A stretch of DNA of 64,000 nt, from assembly GCA_049644265.1 (NCBI GenBank), contig JBARRO010000139.1, positions 5,462 through 69,461 of the forward strand, in the 5' to 3' direction. A program made the translations under genes and the position numbers. Shown here piece by piece: positions 17,404 through 56,356 of the stretch; position 1 is the first letter of the stretch, and each line of letters starts with the position of its first letter. This DNA is from Bacteroidota bacterium (GTDB taxonomy: Bacteria > Bacteroidota > Ignavibacteria > UBA10030). The notes under the pieces were generated by a model. It was not told the DNA's origin. It did not search any database and saw only the letters and a program-made list of their open reading frames with translations.

Positions 17404-17482
17404 AATAGACTCTTGGAGAAGGTGGTAGGTGTGAGGTGGTAGGAAGATATTCCCCTTCCACCTACGACCTATCACCTTCTTC

Positions 17483-23458: not shown

Positions 23459-23773
23459 GAGAGTGATAAGGTTTAATAAGGAGTATTCAGTTCGTTGGAT
23501 ATTGGGTGTTGGTTATTGAGTGTTGGACATTGAAAAAGATTCAATTTCCAATAACGAATGTTTGGGAGTTGGGCATTGAAAAAAGACTCAACATCCAATA
23601 GCATCGTCCGATGTCCAATTACCAAGGAGTAAGACCTTGAGAGTTGATCATTGGGAGTTGGAAATTGAAAGCTGAAAGATTCAAATTCCAATACCCAACA
23701 ATCAACATCCAACGTTCAAGGGAACACACCTTGGACATTGGAAATTGGCTATTGGAGATTGGACATTGAATCT
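23459..23773. repeat. Cluster of TTGGA(C/A)ATTGA...TCAAT(G/T)TCCAA hairpin repeats
   Basis: At least five imperfect inverted-repeat units (for example ttggaaattgaa-agctgaaaga-ttcaaattccaa) fill the whole 315-bp gap between ampG and the spoIID-like gene. Confidence 0.7.
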
Positions 23774-25103: not shown

Positions 25104-25172
25104 GGGAGTTTCTAGTTTCTAGTTTCTGGTTTCTGGTTTAGAGTTTAGAGTTTAGAGTTTCTAGTTTCTGCG
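25104..25172. repeat. GAGTTTC/TAGTTTC heptamer array
   Basis: Sequence gagtttctagtttctagtttctggtttctggtttagagtttagagtttagagtttctagtttctg. Confidence 0.7.
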
Positions 25173-26175: not shown

Positions 26176-26291
26176 GAAGAAATACCACGAAGGTCACTAA
26201 GGACACAAAGGAAAGAAATAATATTGAGAGAGAATCGTTGGACCGATTTCGAATAAAACCCTTAGTGTTCTTCGTGTCCTTCGTGGTTCAC
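26172..26291. repeat. CACGAAGG / CCTTCGTG word repeats arranged as an inverted pair
   Basis: ccacgaaggtcactaaggacacaaagg...aatattgag at the left, and cccttagtgttcttcgtgtccttcgtgg at the right. Confidence 0.65.
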
Positions 26292-29334: not shown

Positions 29335-29430
29335 AAAGGGGGCAGGGTAGGTTAGTTGGTTGACTGGTTAATTGGTTATTGGTTGATTGATGGGTTTTTT
29401 GCTGGCTACTCACCAACTAACTCCTCACCA
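29335..29430. repeat. GGTTAATTGG word array that is self-complementary
   Basis: ggttagttggttgactggttaattggttattggttgattg is followed by ctcaccaactaactcctcaccacttacc, its imperfect reverse complement. Lies in the divergent 270-bp gap between the kinase gene and tlpA. Confidence 0.65.
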
Positions 29431-29561
29431 CTTACCATACCCGTGGTATCTCTTTTCATTTTTTCCTATTATCGAATTGCTTCCAGAATCGGGAAACCTT
29501 CAGTCCGTTTTGTTGTTGTACACCCTGAATTCTCTTGTTGAACCTCTTTGAGGAATTGTTG

Positions 29562-31879: not shown

Positions 31880-31965
31880 CGGGGTGGGAGAGTCTGTGAG
31901 TCTATGAGTAGATGAGAAGAAGTGGTTTCTGGTTTGAGGTTTCTTGTTTCAGATTGCCGACTTTG
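31880..31965. repeat. GAGTCTATGAGTAGATGAG word array followed by a GGTTTCT array
   Basis: gggtgggagagtctgtgagtctatgagtagatgagaagaagtggtttctggtttgaggtttcttgtttcag. Confidence 0.6.
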
Positions 31966-33616: not shown

Positions 33617-33639
33617 GATCGGACTGACCACGAAGTTCA

Positions 33640-33712
33640 CAAAGGGCACGAAGGGGAATACGTCATAATCCCTTGGAAATTGGATGTTCGACATTGATTA
33701 TTGAGTGTTGAT
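33640..33712. repeat. One CACGAAG word element plus one TTGGAAATTGGA...GACATTGA element
   Basis: ccacgaagttcacaaagggcacgaaggggaatac and cttggaaattggatgttcgacattgattattgagtgttg. These are members of the families seen at 26172 and 23459. Confidence 0.5.
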
Positions 33713-34396: not shown

Positions 34397-34549
34397 CACG
34401 AAGTACTATGAGCTACCACGAAGGACACTAAGAACACGAAGAGAATATTGAGTATGAATCATGAATCCCGGCGGCTTTCTTTTTCCACGAAGCACTATGA
34501 ACTACCGCGAAGGACACGAAGAGAATATTGAGTGTGTGCCTTGAATCCC
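34381..34549. repeat. Approximately 85-bp tandem direct duplication
   Basis: Copy 1 is 34381-34468 and copy 2 is 34470-34549. They share cggcggctttctttttccacgaag.actatga.ctacc.cgaaggacac...gaagagaatattgagt and include the 3' arm of the terminator and CACGAAGG words. Confidence 0.8.
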
Positions 34550-34877: not shown

Positions 34878-35507
34878 GTGGCACCGAAACTCTGCCCCAA
34901 GATCATCCTCGAAGGCACTCGACTCACGCTGAAAACGGAAATTGCTTTTGCCATGAACGAGCACCCGCGGATTGTCGGACCGAAAAAGTATCGTTACCAC
35001 TCCCCTCTCATCTCAGCGGAATGGTGCGCGTTCACGAATTTCCCCTGGGGACGCGGACTCATCAATTTTGCGCCCGAGGAAGAAGCGCTTGCCCTTGAAA
35101 CCTATGGAACGTGGGTGCGCCTCTTTGAACTCCAACGATTCTATTCGTGGATTATCGATCGCTTTCACATTTCCACGCAGGCGTACCAGCTTCAAAGCCG
35201 CGGGAAACACTATGACTTCCGGTGGCTGGAAGACCGGATGCTTCCCCTTGGTTTTCGGCTTGTGTTCTGTACGCGGAGTCCCGAGTCGTTCGAGGCCGCC
35301 CGGGCGGAGCGATTGAAAGTCTCCGGAAATCCCTCTCAGTACGACGATTTGAACGTGTTCAAATATGAACAAGAGCTGATGAGAAGGCTCGTCGCCGAAT
35401 CGAAGCTGCCAACGATGGGGCTCGATATCTCCGACGGAAACATCGCCGAGGCAACGCGCAAAATCGCTGATTGGCTCGAAGAGACCGGCGGGCTCTATGC
35501 CGGATAA
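34878..35507 (+). CDS. Hypothetical protein (possible P-loop-less nucleoside/nucleotide-kinase-like fold)
   Basis: 209 aa. Start codon uncertain (GTG at 34878 or ATG about 66 nt downstream). No confident family. Confidence 0.45.
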   Translation: MAPKLCPKIILEGTRLTLKTEIAFAMNEHPRIVGPKKYRYHSPLISAEWCAFTNFPWGRGLINFAPEEEALALETYGTWVRLFELQRFYSWIIDRFHISTQAYQLQSRGKHYDFRWLEDRMLPLGFRLVFCTRSPESFEAARAERLKVSGNPSQYDDLNVFKYEQELMRRLVAESKLPTMGLDISDGNIAEATRKIADWLEETGGLYAG

Positions 35508-36747
35508 GCCCATCGCGGGTCGGGACCCGTACCAATCCCTCCGCTACCCTGAATTCCGCAATTACCTGCTCGCTTCCTTCCTCCTGACCGTCGCACTTCT
35601 AGTTCAGGAAGTGATCATCGGGTATGAGTTGTACAAAGTCACGCATGATCCCCTCGCGCTCGGACTGACGGGACTCGCGGAAGCTCTGCCATTCATCGGA
35701 CTTTCGCTTTTTGGCGGACACATCGCAGACCGGGTAAGCAAGCGAAAGATTATTCTCTGGAGTGTCGCCAGCGTGTTTGTGTGCTCAGTGATGCTGCATT
35801 TGTTTGCCAGAAATGCGCAACGTGTTTCTCCAACGGCTCTCGTGGCAGTCATGTATGCGGTCATCGCCTTCATCGGAGTCTGCCGTGCATTTCAATCCCC
35901 TGCCTCGGCCTCTCTCAGGGCATTCCTGACTCCGATTGCGGCCTACGAAAACGCGTCCACCTGGAACAGTTCCTCCTGGCAGGTCGGCTCCATCGTGGGG
36001 CCTGCCATTTCAGGATTCGTTTATGCACTGCTGGGATTCTCCAACACGCTCCTTCTTGTGGTCATCCTCGTCGCCGGATCGTTTCTTCTCTACTCCAGAA
36101 TCGAAGATAAACCGGTGCCCGTACCCAACAAGACGGACAATCTCATGGCGAGTCTCCGGGAGGGAATCGCATTTGTATTCCGGACGAAAATCATTTTCTA
36201 TGCAATCTCGCTGGACTTGTTTTCCGTTCTGTTTGGCGGAGTTGTCGCAATTCTTCCGATCTTTGCGGAGGATATTCTGCGTGTCGGCCCCGAGGGACTC
36301 GGTATCCTCCGCTCCGCCCCGTCGGTCGGTGCCGTGCTGACGCTCGTGATCGTCTCGCGCATATCAGTCATGGAACGTGCCTGGCAGAATCTCCTCATCG
36401 CGGTGACGGGATTTGGCATTTCGATTCTGATCTTTGCCCTGTCACCGTGGATGTGGTTATCGACGGCGGCTCTCTTTTTCAGCGGCGCATTTGACAGCGT
36501 CAGCGTTGTCATTCGGGGGACGCTGCTTCAGCTGCTCACACCCGATGAAATGCGGGGCCGGGTGATGGGCGTGAACGGAATGTTTGTCAGCTCGTCCAAT
36601 GAGATCGGCGCATTTGAATCGGGCCTCGCCGCGCGGCTCCTTGGGACAATTCCCTCTGTGGTCTTCGGCGGCGCGATGACCCTCATGATTGTCGCATGGG
36701 TGTATGCGCGATCCAAGGAGCTGCTGAAGGGAAATTTGAGGGTGTAG
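35497..36747 (+). CDS. MFS transporter, MFS_3 (EntS-like) type
   Basis: 416 aa, 12 TM. Overlaps the upstream gene by 11 nt. Confidence 0.75.
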   Translation: MPDKPIAGRDPYQSLRYPEFRNYLLASFLLTVALLVQEVIIGYELYKVTHDPLALGLTGLAEALPFIGLSLFGGHIADRVSKRKIILWSVASVFVCSVMLHLFARNAQRVSPTALVAVMYAVIAFIGVCRAFQSPASASLRAFLTPIAAYENASTWNSSSWQVGSIVGPAISGFVYALLGFSNTLLLVVILVAGSFLLYSRIEDKPVPVPNKTDNLMASLREGIAFVFRTKIIFYAISLDLFSVLFGGVVAILPIFAEDILRVGPEGLGILRSAPSVGAVLTLVIVSRISVMERAWQNLLIAVTGFGISILIFALSPWMWLSTAALFFSGAFDSVSVVIRGTLLQLLTPDEMRGRVMGVNGMFVSSSNEIGAFESGLAARLLGTIPSVVFGGAMTLMIVAWVYARSKELLKGNLRV

Positions 36748-36751
36748 GGGG

Positions 36752-36900
36752 AGGAAGGTAGATGTGAGATGTGTGATTTGAGTTTCGAGTTTGAAGTTTG
36801 GAGTTTGAAGTTCAAGGTTTAAAGGTGTTGCCAGTTTACCAGTCTCCAGTAACCAGTTCACGGTTCACTATTCACGATTCACTATTCACCACTCATTGCT
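36752..36900. repeat. Composite intergenic element (GAGATGT)n-(GAGTTTN)n-AAGTTCAAGGTTTAAAGGTG-core-(TTCACTA)n
   Basis: Shares an approximately 60-nt core with 56241-56300, and shares architecture with 41312-41511 and inverted 49015-49140. Confidence 0.75.
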
Positions 36901-37011
36901 CTAACTGCTATCTTCAACCTCGAATCCGAAATCCTGCGTGAACACTCGAAACGGCAGGCGCTGAGAATTGCCGGCTGGATTGGTGCGGACAAAGGTCGTT
37001 TCCGAAAACTC

Positions 37012-37443
37012 ATGGGGCTTTTCCTCCGTGGCGACTACCGGGTAACTCAAAGGTCTGCATGGATCGTCAGCCACTGTGCGGACAGGCATCCTTTCCTGAT
37101 TGACGCATGGCTCAAACCCATGGTGAAGAGAATGCGCGAACCCGGCGTACACGACGCGGTCAGGCGGAACGGCATGCGGATTCTTCAGAACGTCGAGATC
37201 CCACGGCCGTTGATGGGGACAGTCGCTTCTCTTTGCTTTGAATACCTCTCTTCCGTCGATGCTCCTATTGCCGTGAAAGCAAACTCGATGACTGTCCTGG
37301 CCAACATTGCGCGGCGCGAGCCGGATCTCCGCCATGAGCTTGAGGCAATCGTACAGCAAATGATGCCCTACGTCGGTGCAGCACTTCGCTCAAGGGGCCG
37401 ACAAGTTCTGAAGGTTCTCGCCGCGGTGCAGCAAGCCCGATAG
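37012..37443 (+). CDS. Hypothetical alpha-helical (HEAT/ARM-like) protein
   Basis: 143 aa from the ATG. The frame is open upstream to about 36853, so a non-ATG start is possible. Confidence 0.45.
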   Translation: MGLFLRGDYRVTQRSAWIVSHCADRHPFLIDAWLKPMVKRMREPGVHDAVRRNGMRILQNVEIPRPLMGTVASLCFEYLSSVDAPIAVKANSMTVLANIARREPDLRHELEAIVQQMMPYVGAALRSRGRQVLKVLAAVQQAR

Positions 37444-37568
37444 AAAAACTTCCCCAATTATTTCTTCGCTCGTCTGTACGAATTCCCAATCCCGGTAGCA
37501 ACCTTTTTGTTCTTCCCCTCGTCTAATCTCTGTAACCCCCGAAACACTTTTCTCAGGTTTGATGTACG

Positions 37569-38786
37569 ATGGATTTTTCAGGGTTGGGCCGATCTGCTGG
37601 CCTTGTTCTCATTTGCTTCCTTCTGTCTCCATTGAGTCGTGCGAACTCAGCCGATGTATGGCGTTGGACCGGCGACAATACATTTGAACCCGGACCGGGT
37701 CCGTCCATGCGATTCGACGAAATCCTCGAACGCGCAGCGCTTCTTCCTCCCACCGAACGCCTTCACATGATCGACAGCATCCTGGCCACCCTGAACGGCT
37801 TCCCCTACATTGAATCGGACACGGTCGCTACGTTCATTTATCGCGGGGACGCGAAGGAAGTCACCGTTGCGTCGGATGCGAATGGCTGGGATGCGGGATC
37901 AGACTACATGATCAGAATTCCAGATACCGATGTCTGGTTCTTCCAGGATAACTTTGAACCGGATGCACGCATCGAGTACAACTTCATCGTGAACGGCAAG
38001 CACCCGGTGGTCGACCCAATGGCCTCGAATCAATTCGGTTCGGTCTCCGAGGTCCGCATGCCGAAGTATTCGGCACCCTGGGAAATCGAATACCTGACCG
38101 ACATTCCGCACGGAACGGTAAAGGATACGGCGATTTCAAGCGAGGTGTTGAAGGAAACACGCCAGGTGCGTGTCTATCTTCCTCCCAACTATTTTGACGC
38201 GCAATCCGACAGCTTCGGACTGGCCGTATTTCACGACGGATCAGAGTTTCTTTCCATTGGGCAGGCGAGAAATGTCCTTGATCGTCTGGCCTATGAGCGG
38301 ATGATGGAGCCGGTCATCGCGGTGTTCGTACCGCCGGAAAACCGCAGAGAAGAGTATATCGGCTCACAGACGGATGATTTCGCCCGATTCCTAGCGAACG
38401 AGCTTGTTCCCCAACTGAGCTCCAGATATAAAATAAAAGCCGCCCCAAAATTCCATGCCGTCTCTGGTTTTTCCAACGGCGGAAACTCTGCACTCTGGAC
38501 TGCACAACGGTTCCCGTCAGTCTATGGCAACGCGGCGTCGTTTTCCGGAAATCTCACAGCAGCAACCATGGACGCATACCGTGACAGTCTCGCTGTGCCA
38601 CTGCGGCTCTACGTTGAATCTGGAACCTATACAGATTTTCTCCAGGAGGCTCTTCAGTTCTCCTCCGTCGTCAGGACAAAAGGACATAGCCTGCGATTCG
38701 ACGTTGCCCACGAGGGGCACAGCTGGGCAAACGTGAGAGCCCATCTCCGCCGCGCCTTACAGTTCTTCTTTCCTCCGGGCAATTGA
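37569..38786 (+). CDS. Secreted esterase-family alpha/beta hydrolase (enterochelin-esterase-like)
   Basis: 405 aa. Signal peptide, GFSNGG nucleophile elbow (GxSxG), and an N-terminal Ig-like region. Confidence 0.7.
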   Translation: MDFSGLGRSAGLVLICFLLSPLSRANSADVWRWTGDNTFEPGPGPSMRFDEILERAALLPPTERLHMIDSILATLNGFPYIESDTVATFIYRGDAKEVTVASDANGWDAGSDYMIRIPDTDVWFFQDNFEPDARIEYNFIVNGKHPVVDPMASNQFGSVSEVRMPKYSAPWEIEYLTDIPHGTVKDTAISSEVLKETRQVRVYLPPNYFDAQSDSFGLAVFHDGSEFLSIGQARNVLDRLAYERMMEPVIAVFVPPENRREEYIGSQTDDFARFLANELVPQLSSRYKIKAAPKFHAVSGFSNGGNSALWTAQRFPSVYGNAASFSGNLTAATMDAYRDSLAVPLRLYVESGTYTDFLQEALQFSSVVRTKGHSLRFDVAHEGHSWANVRAHLRRALQFFFPPGN

Positions 38787-38856
38787 TTTTCACCCCCCGA
38801 GTCGCTACTTTCCATCCTCAAAGTTCAATCTCCTCCATCTTACCAAAGGAAGTTTC

Positions 38857-40551
38857 ATGAGATTTCTGCCCGCTCTTGTCCTGGTTTGTGTTGCCATCAT
38901 TTCATTCTCGGGTGCACGCCCGAAACCCTCAAAGTCCGGGGAGTGGGATTCATTCCTGAAGGACTTCATTGAACGCTATTTTGTCCTGCATCCTGACTTT
39001 GCAGTCTACTCGGGACGCCATGAGTTCGACGGCAGGTTCCCGGACTGGACTCCTGACGGATTGAAGGCGCAGGCCGCCTGGCTGCACGATCAACGGAAGA
39101 CGGCAATGTCATACGACGGAAGAGCTCTCGACGATCGGCAGCGATTTGAACGGGACTACCTTGCGGCAATCATCGACAAGGACCTGTTCTGGCTGGAGGA
39201 GGCCGAGGCTCCTTTCCGTAACCCGACGTTCTATTCCATCGACCCGAATGTCTATGTGGCAAGGCCCTACGCACCTCTGGAGACAAGAATGCGGGCGTAC
39301 ACCATGTATGCAAAGGGCATTCCTTCCGTGGCAACGCAGATCAGGAAGAATCTCCGTACGCCGCTCCCGCGGACGTTTGTCGATATCGGAAGGATTACGT
39401 TCGGCGGGCTGGCTTCATACTACGCGAACGATGTTCCCGCTGTCTTTGCAGGCGTAAAGGATCAAGCCCTCCAGTCGGAGTTTAAAGCGGCAAATGCAGA
39501 AGCCATCAAAGCGATGAAAGAGCTTGACGCATGGTTCGCAGGGCAAGCCCCCATGGCGACAAGCAACTTTGCACTCGGCACAAAGGTTTTTGCAGACATG
39601 CTGCGTGCGACGGAGCTTGTTGATACTCCGCTGGACGACCTCATGAACATTGGAAAGGCGGACCTCGAACGAAATCTCGTGGCGCTCCGCGATGCATGTG
39701 CCGCCTATGCGCCGGGCAAGACTGTGGCAGAGTGCATTCGAATGGTTCAGTCCAGAAAGCCAACAGGTGGTCCTATCGATGGGGCACGCAAACAACTCAG
39801 CGACCTCCGGAAGTACGTCGTAGAGAAGAATCTTGTGAGCGTTCCGGGAACAGAAGAAGCGCAGGTTCAAGAAGCTCCTCCTTACCAGCGCTGGAATTTC
39901 GCATACATCGATATCCCCGGGCCGTATGAAAAAGGGCTCCCCTCCGTCTATTATATCGCACCACCCGACACTTCGTGGACACCCAAGGAACGCGAAGAGT
40001 ATATCCCCGGCGAAGCGGACCTTCTTTTTACTTCGGTGCATGAAGTCTGGCCGGGGCATTTTCTTCAATTCCTGCATTCCAACCGATCGCCTTCGAAGTT
40101 CGGTCAGATTTTTGTCGGCTACGCGTTTGCCGAGGGCTGGGCACACTACGCAGAGGAGATGATGTGGGAGGCGGGTCTTGGCAGCGGAGATCAGGAGACC
40201 CACATCGGCCAGCTGTTGAATGCCCTCCTTCGGAACGTTCGGTTCATCTCTGCGATCGGTTTACACACGGGAACGATGACAGTGGAGGATTCGGAAAAGA
40301 TGTTCCGGGAGAAAGCGTATCAGGATGCGGGAACGGCGAAGCAACAGGCCGCACGCGGTACCTTCGATCCGGCGTATCTGAATTACACCATGGGCAAACT
40401 GATGATCCGGAAGCTGCGGGACGACTGGACTGCATTGCGCGGGGGTCGAACTGCATGGAAGGAATTCCATGACAAGCTTCTCTCCTTCGGCGGCCCTCCG
40501 ATTCCCCTTGTGCGAAGAGCGTTGATGGGGAAGCCGGGACCATTGTTCTAG
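38857..40551 (+). CDS. DUF885 family lipoprotein/peptidase-like protein
   Basis: 564 aa. Signal peptide. Motif HEVWPGHF typical of DUF885. Confidence 0.65.
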   Translation: MRFLPALVLVCVAIISFSGARPKPSKSGEWDSFLKDFIERYFVLHPDFAVYSGRHEFDGRFPDWTPDGLKAQAAWLHDQRKTAMSYDGRALDDRQRFERDYLAAIIDKDLFWLEEAEAPFRNPTFYSIDPNVYVARPYAPLETRMRAYTMYAKGIPSVATQIRKNLRTPLPRTFVDIGRITFGGLASYYANDVPAVFAGVKDQALQSEFKAANAEAIKAMKELDAWFAGQAPMATSNFALGTKVFADMLRATELVDTPLDDLMNIGKADLERNLVALRDACAAYAPGKTVAECIRMVQSRKPTGGPIDGARKQLSDLRKYVVEKNLVSVPGTEEAQVQEAPPYQRWNFAYIDIPGPYEKGLPSVYYIAPPDTSWTPKEREEYIPGEADLLFTSVHEVWPGHFLQFLHSNRSPSKFGQIFVGYAFAEGWAHYAEEMMWEAGLGSGDQETHIGQLLNALLRNVRFISAIGLHTGTMTVEDSEKMFREKAYQDAGTAKQQAARGTFDPAYLNYTMGKLMIRKLRDDWTALRGGRTAWKEFHDKLLSFGGPPIPLVRRALMGKPGPLF

Positions 40552-40726
40552 CTCCGGTGTTTGAAAAGCAAACCGCAAAGAACCGCAAAGCTCGCCGCCA
40601 GTTTTTTGGCGAGGGGGCGCAAAGATCACGTATCATTTTCCTTTGCGCCTTCTCGGCGCTCTTTGAGGTTCAATGTTAGAGGAGTCTCTCGGAATCGCCT
40701 TCCAACCATCCGTCTGATCAACGACT

Positions 40727-41308
40727 GTGGAAATCGGAACCACTCTGTATGTCACAACGCGACGCCAGTGGCGCGCATGGTTACGGGCCAATTGCGCGCG
40801 CAAGAAGGAAATCTGGCTGATTTATTACAAGAAGAATTCCGGAAAGCCGAGGATTCCGTATAACGACTCGGTCGAAGAGGCGCTCTGCTACGGTTGGATC
40901 GACAGCATTCTCAAACCCATCGACAGCGAAAAATACGCTCAGCGGTTTTCTCCACGCCGAAAGGACAGCAAATTCTTGTCCGAGATGAATCGCGAGCGTG
41001 TCAGAAGGTTGATGAAGGAAGGGAAGATGACGTCAGCAGGTCTCACAGCTATCAGGCATCTTCTCGACGGCAAGGGCAGGGATCCGGCGATCCACGACAA
41101 TCAGCTTGTTCTTCCTGCTGGCTTGAAACGGGCGCTCAAAAAGGATCCTCAGACCTGGAAGAATTTTTCCAAATTCCCCGAATCTTACAAGAAAATACGC
41201 ATCGGCTGGATCGTGGCAGCGAGACACAGACGGGAGATTTACCGGCAGCGGCTGCGGTACTTCCTGAGAATGACTGCACAGAATAAGAAGTTTGGGATGG
41301 TGAAGTAG
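40727..41308 (+). CDS. YdeI/OmpD-associated family protein
   Basis: 193 aa, GTG start. Family-like pattern YVTTRRQWRAWL...EALCYGWIDS. Confidence 0.6.
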   Translation: MEIGTTLYVTTRRQWRAWLRANCARKKEIWLIYYKKNSGKPRIPYNDSVEEALCYGWIDSILKPIDSEKYAQRFSPRRKDSKFLSEMNRERVRRLMKEGKMTSAGLTAIRHLLDGKGRDPAIHDNQLVLPAGLKRALKKDPQTWKNFSKFPESYKKIRIGWIVAARHRREIYRQRLRYFLRMTAQNKKFGMVK

Positions 41309-41311
41309 GGG

Positions 41312-41511
41312 GATGGGAGAGGTGAGATGTAAGATGTGGGATGTAAGAAGTGAGATGTGAGTTTCGAGTTTTCGGTTCTGAGTTTAGAGTTCAAAGTTCA
41401 GGTTACACTCTACCTATCACTTTTCGCTTTTCATTTTTCACTGTTCACTGTTTGCTTTTCACCTTTCACTTTTCGCTTTTCACTGTTTACAGTTCACCAT
41501 CCGCGAGCATC
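41312..41511. repeat. Composite intergenic element (GAGATGT)n-(GAGTTT)n-AGTTCAAAGTTCAGGTT-(TTTTCAC)n
   Basis: Same architecture as 36752-36900. Occupies the spurious 5' extension of ORF 41357-42127. Confidence 0.75.
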
Positions 41512-42127
41512 CGTGAGTAGCCGCTTCCGACATATCGCTCTCCTTCTCAGCTTCCTCGCAATTTTCATCTGGTCCGTGATCTATCCCAAGGATCTTTTCA
41601 CCTGGTTTCTCGAAGTTTTCCCGGCAATCATCGGACTCTGGGTCCTTCTTGCCACGTATAAACGATTCCCGTTGTCGGATCTGGTGTACGGATTAATCTG
41701 GATTCACGCAATCATTCTTGTTATCGGCGGACACTACACGTATGCCGAGATGCCGTTGTTCAGCTGGATCAGAGACACGTTTCATCAGTCGCGAAATTAC
41801 TATGACAGAGTGGGGCACTTCGCGCAGGGGTTTATCCCGGCGATGATTGCGCGCGAGGTGCTCTTACGAACAACCTCTCTGAAACGCAGCAAAATGCTGA
41901 CGTTCATTATTGTCTCAATTTGTCTCGCAATCAGCGCCGTTTATGAACTGATCGAATGGGGAGTTGCGGAGGCGACCGGTTCAGCTGCCGACGCTTTTTT
42001 GGGAAGTCAGGGAGATGTGTGGGACACGCAGTGGGATATGTTTACGGCGTTGTGTGGGGCGATGATTTCCGTTGGGACACTCTCCCGGGCGCATGATCGC
42101 TCGATGTCGAGGTTGCCTTCCGAATGA
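41512..42127 (+). CDS. DUF2238 family inner-membrane protein
   Basis: Likely GTG start at 41512. Four to five TM helices. The upstream ORF extension reads as repeat-encoded nonsense. Confidence 0.6.
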
Positions 42128-42250
42128 TCCTGCTTCATATTTCTTTATCAGATCCTTCCTTGAATTGCCGTCCTCTTCTGTCGGCCTAAAAGGCCGACCT
42201 ACCGGGGATGGAAATGATCCTATTCGTGTTCTTCGTGTCCTTCGTGGTAC

Positions 42251-42286
42251 AAAAAAAAGCGTGGGAAGAAAAATCTCTTCCCACGC
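42251..42286 (-). terminator. Rho-independent terminator of the multihaem cytochrome gene
   Basis: On the minus strand: gcgtgggaagagatttttcttcccacgc followed by TTTTTTTT. Confidence 0.8.
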
Positions 42287-42315
42287 CCGGAGGATACAAG
42301 AAGACAGCCTGGCGG

Positions 42316-45249
42316 CTATTTAATCAGGACCATCTTCCTGGTTGAAACGAAGTCACCTGCCTGCAAGCGGTAGACATACACGCCGCTGCTGACTGCCTGG
42401 CCCGCATTGTTCGTGCCATGCCAGGTCACTCCATGGTTGCCCGCGGACATCGTGGTATTCACGAGTGTCGTTACGAGTTCACCGGAGACGGAGTAAATCG
42501 AAAGCTTCACAAAGGATTCGGTCGGAAGAGCAAACCGGATCTGTGTGCTTGGGTTGAACGGGTTGGGATAATTCTGACCCAGCGCATACACGGTGGGAAT
42601 CCCGTTCTCATCTTCGACGTTGGTCGTCTTGAGACCGACTTCGATCGAGAAAGCACCCATGTTGCCGGCGTTGTCCATGCCCACAACCTTGTAGTAGTAC
42701 ATCGTTCCCGGCAGCACGTTGACATCGCGACCCTGAACGGCCTTGTCAACCGTCAACACAGGCGTCAAGCCGGTCGGGTCAAAGTTCTGGCTGGTGCTGC
42801 GATACACGAGATACTGCACGACGTCGTTGTCGCGAGTCGTCGGAGCGTCCCACTTCAGGTCGACGCCCTGCGGGGTTGCATTCACCGTCACGCCCGTCGG
42901 GGCAAGCGGCGTGAGGTTATTCAACGAGTAACCGCTGTCAATCGGAGAGCTGTAAACCACAGTTGGGTCGTCCGTGTACCCGCAAACGAAGAAGGCCGTG
43001 TACTTCATGCCTGCTACTTTTGTGGAATCAAAGATTGTCGGTGCGACGGTGGAGTACTGGGTGAAGTTCATCGGATAGACATCCCCGACAAACGTCCACA
43101 CAGATCCGCCCAGCGCATACTGACTGCCGACCACGGAAGACTTCAGCATTTCCGTAAACGAACCCGCCTTCTTGTACGCAATGCCTGCTGACGGGAGAAT
43201 CGGATCCTGTCTCCAGATCCCGTATGCTGTCAACCGGTTCACGCTGTAGGACTCCGCGGGGAACTTGTTCCATACAATCTGAACAGTCTTCCCGTTGTCG
43301 CCCGGGACATCCTTGATCTGGACAATGCTTGCCGCAGCCGCACCGAGCTGAAGCTGCTCGATGGAGGACGTCAGAAGACCCTTGGCATACAGATAATTGT
43401 GCACGCCAAAGCTTCCGTCGTTGTTCACGAACTGATAGTTGTACGCCGCAGCCTTTTCCGGAACCGTGAGCTTGCGCTTGCTTCCGGCGGGTGCATTCTT
43501 CCAGTTTTGATACACGATCGTGTCGCTTGGCAGAATTACTGCGCCGACTGAATCGCGTTTGGGGAGGGCGTTGAGCAGTGTGGCAAGGAGCGCCTTTGTC
43601 TTGGCTTGCGTAAAGTCGACAAATTCAATGCTCGTTCCTTCGCCATGGCATTCGGCACATCCCGTCGGATTGAGAACCGGGACGGAGTCGCCGGGTGCAG
43701 TGTAGGCAACCCGGAAGGTGTGACCACCAAGCTTATTCAACATCGTGTCTGGCTTGCTGAAGTTCGCAGCTTGGGAAGCCAGGAACGACGGCGAGTCGGC
43801 CATATGGCACGTCACGCATTTCTCGGCAATGTCGCTGTGCGAGGAATTCTCATACTTGTAGCCCGGCAACTCCCAGCCGCTCCATTTTCCAAGCGCTGCG
43901 GTAATCAGGTTGGGGTTCGCCATGTAGTTCTTCAACACATCGAGCGAGAACGCCGGAGCTTTTGTTCCATCGAGCATCGGACCCTGATGGGCCGCATGCA
44001 ATCCACGGCTGCTGATGCGCGTCTCGTGGCAACCGACACAGACTTCTGCAATCGAGGCTGCACGGAGCTGGGCGGCATTCTTGTTGCTGTGCGGATCGTG
44101 GCACGTCGTGCAACCGACGGGCTCGGGATCCGGATAAACTTTGTTTCCACTCGCGACGACCGGCTCGGGTTCGCCGTTGATCGTCTGTCCGATGTATCCT
44201 TGTGCCGTATGACACTTGGCGCAAATTGGACGGTCGGTGTATTCCACCTGTGCGCCTTCCGCCATAGAAACGGCGTGCAAGGAGCCTGACCAGGCGTAGC
44301 CTTTGCCATGACGGTCACTGGAGAAGTGACATGGTGCGCAAACGTCGGAAGACAGAGAGCGATCCAACTTCGTGTTGTCGGGAGTCGGGAAACCTGAAGA
44401 CGTGTGCTGCGATGCAGGACCGTGGCAGTTTTCGCACTGAATGCTCGTGAGTCCCATCATGGTCCTCAACCCAATATTTGAACCTGCTGCCGTCACCAAT
44501 GAATCAAAGACCCCGGGGTGCTGGGGAGTAACGACTTTGAAACTCAACGACGTTGCATATTCGGTGTAGCCATCGTTGGGCGCTCCGGTGACTGTGGATT
44601 TATATGCACCAGCGGAGTGACAGGACATGCAGTTGTTCGAGAAATGTCCGCCGGCCGGTTCGGGCTGGTCAAGGTCGGTCAGTGCATCGAACCGTCGCTT
44701 GACGGCCTTTGCGTGCTTCGTCTTCTGCCAGTCGGTGAACTTGCCCGGACTCGTGAAGTGACATGCGCACCCGGAGGGCACAGTGTTGGCAGCCAGACTG
44801 ATGCCGGCGCCGACAAACTTTGAAGCAATAACTTTGATGGAAACGGAAGGCGTCGTTCCTGACGCAGTCGTCGCCGTCATGCCGACGGTGTACTCACCGG
44901 CAACATCCGGAATAAAATATACGATGGTTCCGTTGAGACCCGTCGCGGTGTCCTGGATCGTTGCAGTGGTTCCACCAGGCCCGGTCAGCGTCCATGCTGC
45001 GCTGGTAACCGACAGGAGTGTTTCGTTATATTTTGTGGCGGTACCAGAATACACCTTTGGTGCCAGCACAACGCGGTTGCCAATGCCCACAGTTTTGAGA
45101 CCGTAGGTTGATTCGTTCTTGTTGGCCGCTTTGAACCGGTCGGGAACGCCCACAACCATGATCTTGCCTGTTTGGGCGAACGCTCCGACTGGGAGCGCTA
45201 TGGAAAGCGCAAGGACAACAATGGAACAGATGAGTAAGAATCTCCTCAT
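42316..45249 (-). CDS. Secreted multihaem c-type cytochrome (at least 8 CxxCH) with FN3 domain and T9SS C-terminal sorting domain
   Basis: Start ATG at 45249 with RBS aaggagga and signal peptide MRRFLLICSIVVLALSIALPVGAFAQ. The ORF track extends 53 codons further upstream. CxxCH motifs: CMSCH, CENCH, CAPCH, CAKCH, CTTCH, CVGCH, CVTCH, CAECH. C-terminus YPNPFNPSTQIRF...VYVYRLQAGDFVSTRKMVLIK matches a Por/T9SS CTD. Confidence 0.85.
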   Translation of the reverse strand: MRRFLLICSIVVLALSIALPVGAFAQTGKIMVVGVPDRFKAANKNESTYGLKTVGIGNRVVLAPKVYSGTATKYNETLLSVTSAAWTLTGPGGTTATIQDTATGLNGTIVYFIPDVAGEYTVGMTATTASGTTPSVSIKVIASKFVGAGISLAANTVPSGCACHFTSPGKFTDWQKTKHAKAVKRRFDALTDLDQPEPAGGHFSNNCMSCHSAGAYKSTVTGAPNDGYTEYATSLSFKVVTPQHPGVFDSLVTAAGSNIGLRTMMGLTSIQCENCHGPASQHTSSGFPTPDNTKLDRSLSSDVCAPCHFSSDRHGKGYAWSGSLHAVSMAEGAQVEYTDRPICAKCHTAQGYIGQTINGEPEPVVASGNKVYPDPEPVGCTTCHDPHSNKNAAQLRAASIAEVCVGCHETRISSRGLHAAHQGPMLDGTKAPAFSLDVLKNYMANPNLITAALGKWSGWELPGYKYENSSHSDIAEKCVTCHMADSPSFLASQAANFSKPDTMLNKLGGHTFRVAYTAPGDSVPVLNPTGCAECHGEGTSIEFVDFTQAKTKALLATLLNALPKRDSVGAVILPSDTIVYQNWKNAPAGSKRKLTVPEKAAAYNYQFVNNDGSFGVHNYLYAKGLLTSSIEQLQLGAAAASIVQIKDVPGDNGKTVQIVWNKFPAESYSVNRLTAYGIWRQDPILPSAGIAYKKAGSFTEMLKSSVVGSQYALGGSVWTFVGDVYPMNFTQYSTVAPTIFDSTKVAGMKYTAFFVCGYTDDPTVVYSSPIDSGYSLNNLTPLAPTGVTVNATPQGVDLKWDAPTTRDNDVVQYLVYRSTSQNFDPTGLTPVLTVDKAVQGRDVNVLPGTMYYYKVVGMDNAGNMGAFSIEVGLKTTNVEDENGIPTVYALGQNYPNPFNPSTQIRFALPTESFVKLSIYSVSGELVTTLVNTTMSAGNHGVTWHGTNNAGQAVSSGVYVYRLQAGDFVSTRKMVLIK

Positions 45250-45648
45250 AAATCCTCCTTCGCGGAATAATTTGAGAGATCGTTCAATGGAGTTTGGGGA
45301 CATGAAAGACGATTTGTTGGTAGGTTGGTGATCGATCCCCAGGATGTCTTCAACAGAAATTTTCGTTGCGTCTGTTACAATTCCCCGGGAATCACCACTA
45401 TCCGTCAACTTTTATACCACTGTTCTTTCAAAGTAAGAGGATGTAGAGCCCTCAAAAGCGGAACAAAATCGACGACCGTACAGGTGATCATCTTCTCAAT
45501 TATTAGAATTGCGGAAATCAACAAATCCAACTTCTCTATTCTCATAAACGAGTCTTAAGAATCGTTATTCCATTGTCGGCTGTCTGAATGAGGAGCGGAA
45601 CGTTGAAAGCAAGCAATGCGTTGTGGGAACCAACCAAAGGAACGTACG

Positions 45649-46077
45649 ATGCGGTTGTGGAGTCTCCATCCGTCCTATCTCGACGCCAAAGGCCTGGTCG
45701 CCGTCTGGCGTGAGGCGCTTCTTGCGAGAGCAGTGTTGCGCGGGGCGACGAAAGGGTACAAGCACCATGCACAACTCGAGCGGTTCAGGAAATGCCGACG
45801 ACCTCTTGCCGCAATCAACAGCTATCTTAGCGGAATTAATGACGAGGCACTTCGAAGAGGATACAAATTTGACAGCAGGAAGCTTGGACCCCCGTCACGA
45901 GGCCCAGTGCTTACGGTGACACGAGGACAGCTTCGGTATGAGCTGGAACATCTGAAGAAAAAACTTCGAACGAGAGACACGCAGCGGTACAACAAGTTGG
46001 CAACCCTGAAGAGAGTTCATCCACATCCCCTCTTTCGGGTCATTGCGGGAACAGTTGAATCCTGGGAAAGACTTTGA
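45649..46077 (+). CDS. Pyrimidine-dimer DNA glycosylase (T4 endonuclease V-like) family protein
   Basis: ATG at 45649. N-terminus MRLWSLHPSYLDAKGLVAVWREALLA resembles the Pyr_excise family N-terminus. Confidence 0.6.
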   Translation: MRLWSLHPSYLDAKGLVAVWREALLARAVLRGATKGYKHHAQLERFRKCRRPLAAINSYLSGINDEALRRGYKFDSRKLGPPSRGPVLTVTRGQLRYELEHLKKKLRTRDTQRYNKLATLKRVHPHPLFRVIAGTVESWERL

Positions 46078-46082
46078 CGGAA

Positions 46083-46964
46083 CTACGAGGCTGACGCTGA
46101 AGCGGCTTTGAGAGTATTCTTCATCAGGAGGGCGATGGTCATCGGACCAACCCCGCCGGGGACCGGGGTTATCGCCTTGGCAATTTTTTCCGCGGAAGCG
46201 AAATGAACATCTCCCACAATACGGTATCCGTTCTTTGCTGAGGCATCCTCAACGCGGTTGATTCCGACATCGATCACGACAACTCCTTCCTTCAACATCT
46301 CACCGCGTATAAACTCTGCTTTGCCGATGGCTGCGATAAGAATATCGGCCGCCTTCGTGTAGGGCGTCAAGTCCTTTGCCCCGGTGTGGGCAATAGTGAC
46401 AATCGCATTTGCCGCTGCTTGTTTCTGCATGAGCATATTCGCGACCGGCTTGCCGACAATATTGCTCCTTCCAACGACAACCACATGCTTCCCGGAAGGA
46501 TCGTTGCCGCTGCGAATCAGGAGCTCCTGAATCCCTGCGGGCGTGCAAGGCTTGAACGTCTCTTCGCCAAGCACAAGCTTGCCAATATTCTGCGGATGGA
46601 ATCCGTCAACATCCTTCGTGGGGCTGACGCTTTCAATGACCCGCTGTTCGCTGATGTGTTTCGGAAGGGGCAGCTGGACGAGAATTCCGTGAATTCTGGT
46701 GTCCACATTGAACTGGCGAATTTTTTCAAGAAGAATTTGCTCCGAAGTATCTGCCGACATCCGCTCCGTCACCGAGTAGAATCCCATTTCCTCGCATGCC
46801 TTCCCTTTCATCCGCACATAGATCTGGGATGAGGAATTCTCTCCCACCAGTATAAAGGCGAGGCCGGGGGTAATTCCTTTCGCGTTCTTCAGGCGAAGGG
46901 TTTCGCCTTTGACCTCCTGCCGGATGTCTTCGGAGATCTTTTTGCCGTCGATGATTTGGGCCAA
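46083..46964 (-). CDS. folD: Bifunctional methylenetetrahydrofolate dehydrogenase / methenyltetrahydrofolate cyclohydrolase
   Basis: 293 aa, TTG start. IIDGKKISEDI N-terminus, Rossmann GRSNIVGKP, and PGGVGPMT motif. Confidence 0.9.
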   Translation of the reverse strand: MAQIIDGKKISEDIRQEVKGETLRLKNAKGITPGLAFILVGENSSSQIYVRMKGKACEEMGFYSVTERMSADTSEQILLEKIRQFNVDTRIHGILVQLPLPKHISEQRVIESVSPTKDVDGFHPQNIGKLVLGEETFKPCTPAGIQELLIRSGNDPSGKHVVVVGRSNIVGKPVANMLMQKQAAANAIVTIAHTGAKDLTPYTKAADILIAAIGKAEFIRGEMLKEGVVVIDVGINRVEDASAKNGYRIVGDVHFASAEKIAKAITPVPGGVGPMTIALLMKNTLKAASASAS

Positions 46965-47050
46965 GGGAGTTGAGGAGTAGTGAGTAGACGAGTGGAGGAG
47001 TCTATGAGTCGATGAGTCTATGAGTCGATGAGTAGATGAGCCTCTAAGTA
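46965..47050. repeat. GAGTAGATGAGTC octamer array
   Basis: gaggagtagtgagtagacgagtggaggagtctatgagtcgatgagtctatgagtcgatgagtagatgag. Confidence 0.7.
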
Positions 47051-47054
47051 GGAA

Positions 47055-47858
47055 TCAAGAGCTGCCGAATGCGGGGAAGATCAGCTGTTCGATCTTGGTC
47101 GCCTTTCCGGTCTCGGTATCAACCTGGATATACACCGCACACATACGGACGTCGTGTTCGGCCATTTCGAACTTGTAGGGAGTCTGGTGCTGAAAGCGCT
47201 TGATCGCTATCTCTTTTTTCATGCCGATGACAGAATCGTAGGGGCCTGTCATGCCGACGTCGGTAATGTACGCAGTGCCGTTGGGAAGAATCCTTGCGTC
47301 TGCGGTCGGAATGTGGGTGTGTGTGCCCACGACAGCGCTGACGCGTCCGTCAAGATGCCATGCGAGCGCCATTTTTTCCGCCGTGGCCTCCGCGTGCATG
47401 TCTATAAAGATAACCTTCGTATCGTTGGCGATCTTGCTGACAGCCCAATCTGCGGAACGGAACGGGTCGTCAATCGTCTGCATGTAGGTTCGTCCCTGCA
47501 GATTGATGACGCCCACTCTGCCCTTCTCTTTCAGGTCGTAGACGATGAATCCAAAGCCCGGATTTTCTTTCGGATAGTTGAGCGGCCGGAGAAGGTTTCG
47601 CTCTTTTGCAAGAAGTGGCTTAATCTGCCAACGGTCCCAAATGTGGTTTCCAGACGTGATGACATGAACGCCGAGACCAAACAGGACCTTCGTTTCCTCT
47701 TCGGAAATGCTTTTCCCCTCATTGACGTTCTCGCCGTTCGCGATGCAGAAGTCGATTTCGTACTTCTGGAGGTATTGCTTGAGCATCATCGAAACGAGAT
47801 TCATCCCGGGTTTCCCGTTGATGTCGCCAACAAACAGAATATTGAGGAGTTTGGACAA
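47055..47858 (-). CDS. YmdB-like metallophosphoesterase (TIGR00282 family)
   Basis: 267 aa. Motifs FVGDINGKPG, GNHIWD, GTHTHIPTAD. Confidence 0.8.
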   Translation of the reverse strand: MSKLLNILFVGDINGKPGMNLVSMMLKQYLQKYEIDFCIANGENVNEGKSISEEETKVLFGLGVHVITSGNHIWDRWQIKPLLAKERNLLRPLNYPKENPGFGFIVYDLKEKGRVGVINLQGRTYMQTIDDPFRSADWAVSKIANDTKVIFIDMHAEATAEKMALAWHLDGRVSAVVGTHTHIPTADARILPNGTAYITDVGMTGPYDSVIGMKKEIAIKRFQHQTPYKFEMAEHDVRMCAVYIQVDTETGKATKIEQLIFPAFGSS

Positions 47859-47956
47859 TTGTTCTCCGATTTGAAAGGATTTTCGGCAGTTAACGATGAA
47901 CAGCTGGCGCCGTTCAATATAGAGGAAAAAGGAGTGAAAGAAAAGGAGATGCTACT

Positions 47957-48985
47957 CTACTGCGATTCCAACGCCTTCCGGTAAGCGTCTCTGAGTTTTA
48001 TTGCGGCGTTCTTCCACGAAAACTCGTTCTTGAATTTCTCCCGGAGTCCGGTCCCTCGGTCTTTTTCCAGAGCCCGGACGATTCCGCCGCGAATGTCCTC
48101 GACGTAATTCGGATCCACGTATTCTGCATCTGAGCCAAAGTAATCCCGCGTTCCGCCGTTGGGCGTAATCACAATGTTGGCCCCGGCAAGTCCCGCCTCG
48201 AGTGCGGCGATACCGGGAGTTTCAAAGATGGAGGGAAGCGCAAACACTTTGGCCGCAGCGTATGCCGAAGCGAGAAGCGGTGAATCATGAGGAATGCTTT
48301 CGAGAACCGTCAGACGGGGATTTCGCTTTGCCTGTTCCATGCATGCACGGCCTGCCTCCGATTGCTCAATTCTGCCTATGATGACGGCGGGAATTTCTAC
48401 AGACTCCAGCGCTCGCAGGAGTCGGAAGACATTTTTGCGTGCAGGACCCACATGTCCGACATTCAGAACAAAATTCTCGGTCCCGTACTTCTTCTTAAAA
48501 AGACCGGGCTTTGCACTGTAGAATCTTTTCTCTATACCAACCGGCACAACGGTGAGGGATTCCTTTGAAACTCCGAAGCCGTTGGAAAACAGCGTCGCCT
48601 CTGCCTGCGTCGTGGGGAACACCGCCTTCGCCCATTGACATATCTCTGCCATGATGCCATAGTCGGTCCAGAAACCTGGAAGGAACTTTCTCAACGACCT
48701 GTCTCCCGCAATCGCCATCCGTACGAAAGCGCCCGAATGGCGCGTGTAGAAGATCGGGGTCACAACGGTGGGAACGCCGTTGAGCTTCAGCATGCGAGCC
48801 AGGTGGTATGTCCCGATGCCAGCACTAAAGATGTGCACAAGGTCAAATTCGCCCTTCTTAAATTCCTGCCAGGAATCAAACAAGGCGACCTTCACGCCGA
48901 GATTCTCCAGCTCCACTTTTGTCTGGAGGATCTGAGTGCGGGGGCCTCCCTTCAGCATCATGATAGATTGATAAGAGGCGAGGCA
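47957..48985 (-). CDS. Family-4 (GT-B) glycosyltransferase
   Basis: True ATG at 48985 (MNICLASYQ). The 151-codon upstream part of ORF 47957-49438 runs into repeat DNA. C-terminal motifs EGLP/ETPGIAALEA are absent in classic form, but the GT4 fold is recognisable. Confidence 0.7.
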   Translation of the reverse strand, partial: CLASYQSIMMLKGGPRTQILQTKVELENLGVKVALFDSWQEFKKGEFDLVHIFSAGIGTYHLARMLKLNGVPTVVTPIFYTRHSGAFVRMAIAGDRSLRKFLPGFWTDYGIMAEICQWAKAVFPTTQAEATLFSNGFGVSKESLTVVPVGIEKRFYSAKPGLFKKKYGTENFVLNVGHVGPARKNVFRLLRALESVEIPAVIIGRIEQSEAGRACMEQAKRNPRLTVLESIPHDSPLLASAYAAAKVFALPSIFETPGIAALEAGLAGANIVITPNGGTRDYFGSDAEYVDPNYVEDIRGGIVRALEKDRGTGLREKFKNEFSWKNAAIKLRDAYRKALESQ

Positions 48986-49014
48986 GATGTTCATGGGGAG
49001 GTAGCGGTTAGCAG

Positions 49015-49140
49015 GTGAATCATGAGTGAAAAGTGAAAGGTGAATAGTTAGAGCGTATATCGCACTTTGAACATTGAACTTTAAACTCGAAACTTCAAAC
49101 TCTAAACTCCAAACTATCTCCCACCTTACCCTCGCCCCAA
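49015..49140. repeat. Composite element in inverted orientation: (GTGAA)n...(AAACTC)n
   Basis: gtgaaaagtgaaaggtgaatag...gaactttaaactcgaaacttcaaactctaaactccaaact is the reverse complement of the 36752/56187 architecture. Confidence 0.7.
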
Positions 49141-53614: not shown

Positions 53615-53800
53615 TGTGTCAAATTAGGGAACACGAATGAACCGAATGCAACGAATCACACGAACGAGATATTAGTTTGTGAGTTTGTATGATTCGTGTC
53701 ATTCGCACGATTCGTGCAATTCGTGTTCCACGTATGGAACGAATGCCACAAATTAGACGAATAAGAAATTGGTTTGTGAGATTCGTGTTTCATCCTTCAA
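53615..53800. repeat. ACGAAT / ATTCGT word repeats forming a long imperfect hairpin
   Basis: Left arm ggaacacgaatgaaccgaatgcaacgaatcacacgaacg. Right arm gattcgtgtcattcgcacgattcgtgcaattcgtgttcc. Also tttgtgagtttgtatgattcgtg and ttggtttgtgagattcgtg. Confidence 0.7.
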
Positions 53801-54834: not shown

Positions 54835-54925
54835 AAGTAGGTCGAGGTTGGTAAAGAGTAAAGTGTGAAGAGTAAAGAGTAAATGGTGAATAGTAAACAG
54901 GAAACCGTGAAGAGCGAACAGTAAC
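54835..54925. repeat. AGTAAAG / GTGAA word array
   Basis: ggtaaagagtaaagtgtgaagagtaaagagtaaatggtgaatagtaaacaggaaaccgtgaagagcgaacagtaactcgtgaac. Confidence 0.65.
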
Positions 54926-55128
54926 TCGTGAACTGACCGCTGAAGGCTGATCATGACCGCTAAAGTACTTTTTTTTCACTCGTTGAACAAGGGGAATAAC
55001 AATCAATTCACTCTCCTTTCCCCAATGATTCTTTCTCTCGCAATGAATGTTGTTCCAACGCAAGGACTTGTCTTGCCATTCTTGCCCTCCTTCTCTATAT
55101 TGATAGACCACATTTTTTCGAATTCCTC

Positions 55129-56345: not shown

Positions 56346-56356
56346 TATAGCTCTCC

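Follow-up and report, generated by a model that had tools for sequence, protein, structure and literature searches.

Arrays of seven-nucleotide words between bacterial genes were recognised decades ago in cyanobacteria, with later reports from Xanthomonas, Beggiatoaceae and Bacteroidetes, and they have no accepted function. According to the introduction of PMC4679880 and the discussion of PMC4692102, heptanucleotide units are the dominant class among the long simple sequence repeats (LSSR) of many prokaryotes and are enriched between genes (Mrazek 2007); their function is presented there as without accepted explanation, and polymerase slippage as the proposed cause. Here we analyse 64,000 nt of contig JBARRO010000139.1 (positions 5,462 to 69,461 of the forward strand, assembly GCA_049644265.1) from a metagenome-assembled genome of an uncultured Bacteroidota bacterium of the Ignavibacteria lineage UBA10030, a stretch called the window hereafter. 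It is ordinary chromosome, carrying genes for SMC, ValS, GatB, SucC, ParA and PurM, and four of its intergenic spacers are copies of one composite repeat element. Our results show that the four copies are paralogous, bipartite intergenic spacers made of degenerate heptanucleotide tandem arrays. The original prediction had suggested a lineage-specific functional DNA element; the copies are a local flavour of the intergenic heptanucleotide repeats already described (PMC4679880, PMC4692102). The family is a lineage-specific, paralogous, bipartite heptamer-microsatellite spacer of that kind and not a new class of DNA element.

Among described systems, TAACTGA repeats lie in forward orientation a few nucleotides upstream of start codons that have no ribosome-binding site, in Beggiatoaceae, Cyanobacteria and Bacteroidetes (MacGregor 2015, PMC4679880). 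In Gramella, Aequorivita and Elizabethkingia, different heptamers are mixed within one spacer and nearly identical composite spacers occur at two loci; 7-nt indels separate strains, close relatives have shorter, repeat-free spacers, and a translational role has been proposed (PMC4679880). The window family fits the TAACTGA kind in every structural respect, with other words. Its TTCACNN arrays occupy the same forward position just upstream of start codons without a Shine-Dalgarno (SD) motif. However, its units are GAGTTTN, GAGATGT and TTCACNN, no TAACTGATAACTGA was found in the window even with two mismatches allowed, and its bipartite layout includes a C-poor trailer arm that is missing from the TAACTGA description.

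The arrays also resemble LSSR, as far as these are described in the sources above, in their tandem 7-nt units, strong intergenic enrichment, sporadic phylogeny and fast change of length and sequence between relatives. They differ in being degenerate, with five of seven positions fixed, in joining several words in a fixed order that recurs in four collinear paralogous copies and, as far as we found, in their polarity relative to transcription; indeed, we found no description of a two-arm polarity rule in the literature on LSSR and related heptamer repeats.

The units of the cyanobacterial short tandemly repeated repetitive (STRR) families STRR1-3 are CCCCAGT, TTGGTCA and CAACAGT. These heptamers were reportedly first described by Mazel et al. 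in 1990. Like them, the window arrays are tandem intergenic heptanucleotides at many loci per genome and without an assigned function, but the host is a member of the Bacteroidota, the units are others, and STRR arrays are described as more uniform and built from a single unit. They are mentioned in PMC4692102 as the heptanucleotides of Calothrix PCC 7601.

The host lineage matters for what follows. In Bacteroidetes, translation is initiated without use of SD sequences and is tuned by mRNA structure, with depletion of AUG near start codons (PMC6847099, PMC7797042). The traits reported for Bacteroidia (Baez et al. 2019, PMC6847099; Jha et al. 2020/21, PMC7797042), namely few SD motifs, weak structure and AUG depletion, are all present in the window. 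Those studies report nucleotide preferences (e.g. A at -3) and no repeat arrays; the leaders of the window have C-rich last bases and heptamer arrays, in contrast to the 'Kozak-like' A-3 preference reported for Flavobacterium.

Four paralogous heptamer spacers

That the element recurs in at least four related copies, in both orientations, is borne out by sequence inspection, by Tandem Repeats Finder (TRF) and by shuffled controls. Every copy contains head-to-tail period-7 arrays of 3-10 units (TRF). Copy 1 (36748-36905, plus strand) begins directly after the stop codon of an MFS gene (35497-36747). Its C-poor 5' arm (36760-36812) consists of about three GAGATGT and then about five GAGTTTN units; a transition and core follow at 36808-36856 (AAGTTCAAGGTTTAAAGGTGTTGCCAGTTTACCAGTCTCCAGTAACCAG), where the heptamer words change stepwise and run collinear with copy 3, and then a G-poor 3' arm (36857-36889) of about five TTCACNN units. 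TRF resolves these into AGATGTG x3.3 (36760-36782), GAGTTTG x4.7 (36780-36812) and TTCACGA x4.7 (36857-36889). The downstream gene is annotated at 37012-37443 (plus strand), but its frame is open from ~36850.

Copy 2 (41309-41512, plus strand) fills the spacer between an OmdA-family gene (stop 41308) and a DUF2238 gene (GTG at 41513, NCBI annotation), with seven GAGATGT-like units at 41312-41361, GAGTTT/AGTTCA words at 41359-41399 and about ten TTCACNN/TTTCGCT units at 41417-41498 (TRF: GATGTGA x7.1 at 41312-41361, TCACTTT x9.7 at 41417-41498). Copy 3 (56187-56356, plus strand) extends from a gene of 131 aa (stop 56186) to ParA (ATG 56357). Words grading from GAGTTTN to AAGGTTC lie at 56196-56253, the core at 56242-56276 and nine TTCACNN units at 56277-56339, and TRF reports period-7 arrays at 56196-56253 and 56277-56339 (TTCACTT x9). 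Copy 4 is on the minus strand (48995-49125), between a polysaccharide-deacetylase-like gene (stop 49126) and a glycosyltransferase gene (ATG 48994), with about six GAGTTTN units at 49064-49115 and 3.4 TTCACNN units at 49025-49048 (TRF, period 7).

The order common to the four copies is a degenerate (GAGTTTN)n, then AAGTTCAAGGTT, then (TTCACNN)n, in collinear arrangement. The modular order proposed originally therefore stands for these parts in all four and fails for the others, since the (GAGATGT)n module is present in copies 1 and 2 only and the CCAGTT core in copies 1 and 3 only. The near-identical core of about 60 nt that had been placed at 36826-36880 and 56241-56300 did not hold up: 40 of 67 aligned columns (~60%) are identical. 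The best-conserved shared piece is instead the GAGTTT..AAGTTCAAGG module, with 86-89% identity over 43-45 nt among copies 1, 3 and 4 (blastn); the TTCAC arms of copies 2 and 3 match over 42 nt at 86% (blastn). In a four-way MAFFT alignment the mean column identity is 62% and the invariant backbone lies within the GAGTTT module. Copies 1 and 3 are collinear over ~120 nt, and the gaps between them look like multiples of 7 when the alignment is judged by eye.

This similarity goes beyond low complexity. The pattern AGTTTNNAGTTTNNAGTTTNNAGTT has 8 matches in the window and none in 100 dinucleotide shuffles, and the core pattern has 2 and none, respectively. Local alignment scores of the six copy pairs range from 64 to 88, against 27-37 +/- 5-8 after heptamer-block shuffling; none of 300 block shuffles reached the observed pair score, and other array-rich spacers of the window aligned to the copies with scores of 12-52 only. 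Since pair scores exceed those of block shuffles, the copies share an order of words and not only a vocabulary. The arrays are also no assembly artefact, because an independent assembly (Logan contig of SRR28062278) is 100% identical across 55614-57373, copy 3 included. No difference in unit number between alleles was seen, this lone second assembly of the same species being identical at copy 3.

In copies 1 and 2 (36748-36790 and 41309-41361), the stop codon of the upstream gene is followed by a strong SD-like run and an ATG-stop mini-ORF (GGGGAGGAAGGTAG ATG TGA and GGGAGAGGTGAG ATG TAA, respectively). We considered such mini open reading frames (ORFs; GGAGG..ATGTGA) as a trait of the family, but they are confined to the GAGATGT module of these two copies and are therefore no family feature; they are probably a by-product of the GAGATGT word.

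The four copies belong to a wider landscape. Nearly every intergenic spacer of the window contains quasi-tandem arrays of 7, 8 or 9 nt with many different words, including GTTGGAT/CCAATAT, GGTTAAT/ACCAACT, GAGTCTAT/CTCATCTA and TTCATTG. In non-coding DNA, base identity at lags 7, 14 and 21 is 0.345, 0.320 and 0.315, respectively, versus ~0.26 at other lags, and coding DNA of the window has a period-3 signal only. The four copies and the partial arrays all sit between annotated genes, and a single array, at 16872-16930, overlaps a gene end. The partial arrays that had been predicted are real according to TRF (16710-16766, 25107-25169, 31923-31950 and 54851-54932). On the minus strand, 54851-54932 is a G-poor array of the TTCACNN/TTTACTC type in the leader of purM (gene 53825-54826), 25 nt from the ATG. 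The AGTTTNN array seen on the plus strand at 16710-16766 reads on the minus strand as G-poor (NNAAACT)n, a leader that ends 6 nt before the ATG of sucC. Likewise, (AGTTTCT)x9 at 25107-25169 is an (AGAAACT)n leader on the minus strand, and 5 nt separate it from the ATG with which gene 23774-25102 begins. Related C-poor trailer arrays with the words GAGTCTAT and TGGTTTC lie on the plus strand at 31890-31950, directly after the stop codon of a dsbD-like gene. In practice, such arrays break short-read assemblies and mislead gene callers, as ORFs run through them.

A scan of GTDB representative genomes for AGTTTNN arrays gave at least 120 loci in at least 10 phyla. Among the matches listed, 39 loci are from Bacteroidota, 22 from Acidobacteriota, 13 from Desulfobacterota, 6 from Cyanobacteria and seven each from Chloroflexota, Verrucomicrobiota, Planctomycetota and Gamma/Beta-proteobacteria, besides others; these arrays typically adjoin stop or start codons and frequently form hairpins with their own inverse. 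In the same matches Bacillota are very few and Actinomycetota and Alphaproteobacteria are missing, a phylogenetic bias that is a hint only, the word being AT-rich. An AGTTT array followed by a TCAC array was found for 2 of 138 AGTTT arrays of other genomes among the matches listed, which rules out a universal composite: the pairing of GAGTTT with TTCACT is lineage-specific. Moreover, a scan of JGI metagenomes for the core of copies 1 and 3 (AAGGTTTAAN{0,1}GGTGN{0,1}TTNCCAGTT) returned one unrelated match in AT-rich coding DNA only. The proposed lineage specificity thus holds at the level of words, on both counts.

Polarity of the arrays and the leaders they form

Each of the four copies is flanked by co-directional genes and is oriented along their transcription, so that each spacer reads stop codon, C-poor arrays, G-poor arrays, start codon. 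The 5' arms have a G content of 0.29-0.39 and a C content of 0.02-0.11 (0.39 and 0.02 for 36748-36830 of copy 1), and the 3' arms, 65-112 nt long, have 0.06-0.11 G and 0.30-0.38 C. This polarity is a rule of the whole window, beyond any one element. When 27 short-period non-coding arrays of the window are read in mRNA sense, C exceeds G in 12 of the 13 nearest a start codon and G exceeds C in 11 of the 14 nearest a stop codon (start versus stop, Fisher p=3.4e-4). Across the 20 co-directional spacers that measure 80 nt or more, GC skew falls from +0.07 in the first half to -0.29 in the second, and 16 of them have the higher value in the first half (Wilcoxon p=0.004). One double-stranded word can take both roles by its orientation: AGTTTNN is in sense after stop codons in the four copies, and in antisense, as (NNAAACT)n, it precedes the ATG by 5-6 nt at sucC and at gene 23774-25102 (16710-16766 and 25107-25169).

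The window makes a compact and clear case, in which several word families obey one strand rule and the leaders are AUG-depleted and unstructured. The host makes little use of SD sequences: an SD-like motif at -20 to -4 was found for only 8 of 47 genes, and for the DUF2238, ParA, glycosyltransferase and purM genes, which have no SD motif, the distance from the end of the TTCACNN array to the start codon is 15-31 nt. In the 50 nt upstream of 32 start codons the mean G content is 0.15 and the mean C content 0.29. ATG occurs 7 times in the 50-nt leaders, whereas within-leader shuffles yield 17.4 +/- 3.8 (p ~0.003) and the antisense strands of the leaders carry 27. Within the copies, NTG occurs at most once in a 3' arm and 2-11 times in a 5' arm. 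Folding of the -45 to +15 region around start codons gives -6.9 kcal/mol, versus -13.8 for coding windows (p=1e-11). Since AUG depletion goes beyond composition and orientation follows the mRNA strand, a constraint at the RNA or translation level is indicated.

The context of start codons is itself C-rich: 24 of 47 genes have C at -1, and in 15 of 47 the upstream sequence ends in CTC, TCC or CCC, often as CTCC-ATG. Sequences of the GGGAG type, complementary to this context, often follow stop codons.

The minimum free energy (MFE) folds of the four copies are single long interrupted hairpins with 37-66 pairs between the arms. Their z-scores for copies 1 to 4 are +1.2, -3.4, -0.7 and -0.3 against dinucleotide shuffles and +0.16, -2.5, -0.54 and +0.28 against arm-wise shuffles. 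Pairing in copies 1, 3 and 4 is thus compositional and not specific, as they are no stabler than shuffles; copy 2 alone owes a specific stability to the pairing of GUGAGAU with UUUCAC. A scan of 36000-50000 found no sigma-70-like promoter and no terminator-like site inside copies 1, 2 and 4, Bacteroidota-type promoters being outside the scope of the tool, and copy 3, which lies outside that range, has no terminator hairpin in its fold. No Rfam 15 family matched the window at the gathering threshold, and no tRNA or tmRNA was found in it.

Orthologous spacers were compared in a relative with ~80-83% coding nucleotide identity (contigs of SRR14366756, and ERZ27297709 with its gene coordinates). 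The spacer orthologous to copy 3 is 115 nt long versus 170 and has other words (GATGAGG, GTTGGAA, then AACTCGTAACTC); it keeps the direction from C-poor to G-poor and ends in CTTCCCC-ATG. In the ortholog of copy 4, a GTTGAAN array still follows the stop codon and a TTTCACN array still precedes the ATG; an additional GC hairpin separates the two. Other spacers measure 14 vs 112 nt, 141 vs 315, 42 vs 108 and 435 vs 150 between the two genomes, and both retain segments outside the arrays that resemble promoters or terminators. Comparison of orthologous spacers, which had been suggested as a check, thus retrieved position and polarity and not words or lengths. This persistence of position and polarity, together with the fast turnover of words and lengths, argues against a sequence-specific DNA-binding site.

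Explanations of the polarity

We put the probability at roughly 55% that the copies are slippage-generated heptanucleotide microsatellite spacers of the LSSR, STRR and TAACTGA kind that are constrained at the mRNA level. The arrays would arise and turn over through replication slippage in 7-nt steps, and selection would act on the composition of the transcript and on no specific word. They have probably also been homogenised or copied between loci, through ectopic recombination or gene conversion. The half next to the upstream stop codon is C-poor and G/U-rich (GAGAUGU, GAGUUUN), and the G-poor UUCACNN half next to the start codon would provide a leader free of AUG, GUG, UUG and SD-like purine runs and with little structure. 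Such a (UUCACNN)n leader might suit the SD-independent initiation of Bacteroidota by meeting three requirements together. The C-poor arm would be the less constrained partner, and may be a mere spacer or a relic of an inverted duplication of leader-type arrays. The "recombination-prone filler" suggested originally comes close to this reading. If the rule holds genome-wide and across phyla, the question of why heptamers are used becomes a testable translation hypothesis.

Several points weigh against this explanation. The analysis covers the 64-kb window and, from a single relative, three short contigs. What the reading says about function draws on composition, AUG depletion, folding and comparative data, and the depletion of G in leaders could rest on purifying selection alone, the arrays adding nothing positive. 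The reading does not account for the C-poor arm; the idea that this arm supplies stop codons in all three frames was rejected, as one frame is without a stop codon in copy 3 and likewise in copy 4. The TTCAC array of copy 1 ends ~120 nt short of the annotated ATG. The polarity does recur as a tendency in other phyla, where, among the matches listed, arrays with C>G and G>C number 39:21 near starts and 26:49 near stops (p=5e-4), but these figures depend on crude ORF calls and on loci chosen by one word.

The alternative that survives best, and that we would still regard as a real though minor contender, is neutral slippage: arrays would expand wherever they are tolerated and would serve no function, and polarity would follow passively from mutation bias, or from purifying selection that acts on leaders in general. 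Words and lengths do turn over fast between relatives, no consistent structure is found among the copies, and heptamer LSSR have been proposed as slippage products, according to the introduction of PMC4679880 and the discussion of PMC4692102. However, a single transcription-linked mutation bias cannot yield a C-poor trailer and then a G-poor leader on the same strand of one transcript, and we therefore infer that at least one arm is under selection. Moreover, ATG depletion exceeds what composition gives, and orthologous loci retain position and polarity.

A bolder proposal, which we hold as tentative and rather unlikely, is that heptamer arrays are selected as frame-neutral translational 'insulators' between genes in SD-independent bacteria. 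As 7 is coprime to 3, the presence or absence of a trinucleotide in an array applies to all three frames together. The trailer after a stop codon would then be C-free, composed of G, U and A, with which every stop codon is spelled, and the leader before the next start would be G-free, offering no AUG, GUG, UUG, SD sequence or structure. Were this true, the polarity rule would be a general undescribed grammar and would explain the dominance of heptamers among bacterial intergenic microsatellites.

Rho loading is an improbable explanation, though one with a compositional basis. Unstructured RNA with more C than G is the classic signature of a Rho utilisation (rut) site, and this counts in its favour. 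On this account the G-poor, C-rich, unstructured (UUCACNN)n arm, with a YC dinucleotide every 7 nt, would be rut-like and would let transcription proceed downstream only if the gene is translated. The length and composition of the 3' arms (65-112 nt, G 0.06-0.11, C 0.30-0.38), the weak structure of the leaders and the lack of intrinsic terminators in copies 1, 2 and 4 (copy 3 being outside the scanned range) all agree with it. The tracts, however, adjoin start codons, which are normally covered by ribosomes; many leaders are G-poor without long C-rich arrays; and AUG depletion is explained by translation and not by Rho.

Insertion of a miniature non-autonomous mobile element between genes (MITE-like, or like the small dispersed repeats of Nostoc) seems still less probable. 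The presence of four collinear copies at unrelated loci and the non-periodic core common to copies 1 and 3 would fit such an origin. As predicted, though, no terminal inverted repeats are shared, the only inverted repeat, of 10 nt, being private to copy 2, and the alignment reveals neither conserved termini nor target-site duplications. The genes next to the copies include no transposase, JGI metagenomes gave no more than one chance match to the core, and the orthologous spacers of the relative are differently worded arrays and not empty sites. Two further exclusions made at the outset also hold: the units are contiguous 7-mers without spacers, unlike CRISPR, and they are short and non-palindromic, in copies no stabler than shuffles except copy 2, unlike repetitive extragenic palindromes (REP) or bacterial interspersed mosaic elements (BIME).

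An array bound as double-stranded DNA by a nucleoid protein, an insulator protein or a transcription factor, as had been suggested, is a poor fit and highly improbable. The words are regular, repeated, dense and intergenic, but a period of 7 bp does not keep phase with the DNA helix, and the words are not conserved at orthologous loci, where the spacers keep polarity and lose sequence. Unrelated words (GAGTTT, GTTGGAT, GGTTAAT, GAGTCTAT, TTCACT, CCAATAT) fill equivalent positions, and the orientation rule is specific to the mRNA strand. Least probable of all is a structured RNA (long hairpin, attenuator or terminator) in which the G/U-rich arm pairs with the C/A/U-rich one: each of the four MFE folds is one long interrupted hairpin, the stability of copy 2 is significant and other window spacers form clear heptamer hairpins, but copies 1, 3 and 4 are no stabler than shuffles, and neither U-tract terminators nor an Rfam family were found.

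Other repeats and motifs of the window

Long imperfect hairpins whose arms are complementary heptamer arrays occur at 23459-23773, 29350-29450, 59640-59740 and 62991-63115 (e.g. GTTGGAT.../...ATCCAAT and GGTTAAT.../...ATTAACC), with the C-poor arm first in every case and z-scores from -1.4 to -5.0. The 315-nt spacer at 23459-23773 contains three such hairpins in tandem.

A second repeat family has a 9-nt period (CACGAAGGACACGAAGAAC ... GTTCTTCGTGTCCTTCGTGG) and often forms a long hairpin. Its members lie at 26186-26285, 33617-33660, 34417-34442, ~34480-34530, 42223-42246, 53629-53725 and 59549-59573, and at 5455-5480 of contig L122 of the relative. The spacer between the GNAT and DUF4922 genes is 112 nt long in the window, where it carries this 9-nt-period element, versus 14 nt in the relative; the family's behaviour suggests presence or absence, unlike that of the heptamer arrays. 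A third small family, at 59484-59520 and 62510-62578, consists of inverted repeats (GACTCCCGGAAT ... ATTCCGGGAGTC) followed by T-rich sequence, downstream of an M23 peptidase gene and of valS, and looks like a shared intrinsic-terminator module.

The array at 16872-16930 has a 15-nt period and encodes the 3' end of a zinc-ribbon ORF (gene 16880-17461, minus strand), with the tail ...AMDNDAMDNDAMNNEQ*. The ORF is called at 193 aa versus 162 aa for the ortholog of the relative, and a repeat-encoded C-terminal extension of the protein is possible.

Short-read contigs of the relative (Logan, SRR14366756: L123 1-40, L125 4660-4765) end inside the spacer orthologous to copy 4. Heptamer arrays fragment assemblies, so their abundance in metagenome-assembled genomes is probably underestimated.

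Finally, a conserved motif that is not a repeat, TCTCTATATTGA, is found ~45-60 nt before the start codons of ymdB and of an FAA-hydrolase gene (47914-47923, minus strand; 55094-55103, plus strand). It is kept in the relative (L122 ~1108-1120, L123 ~1172-1185), where the adjoining arrays are not, and is possibly a promoter element of this lineage.

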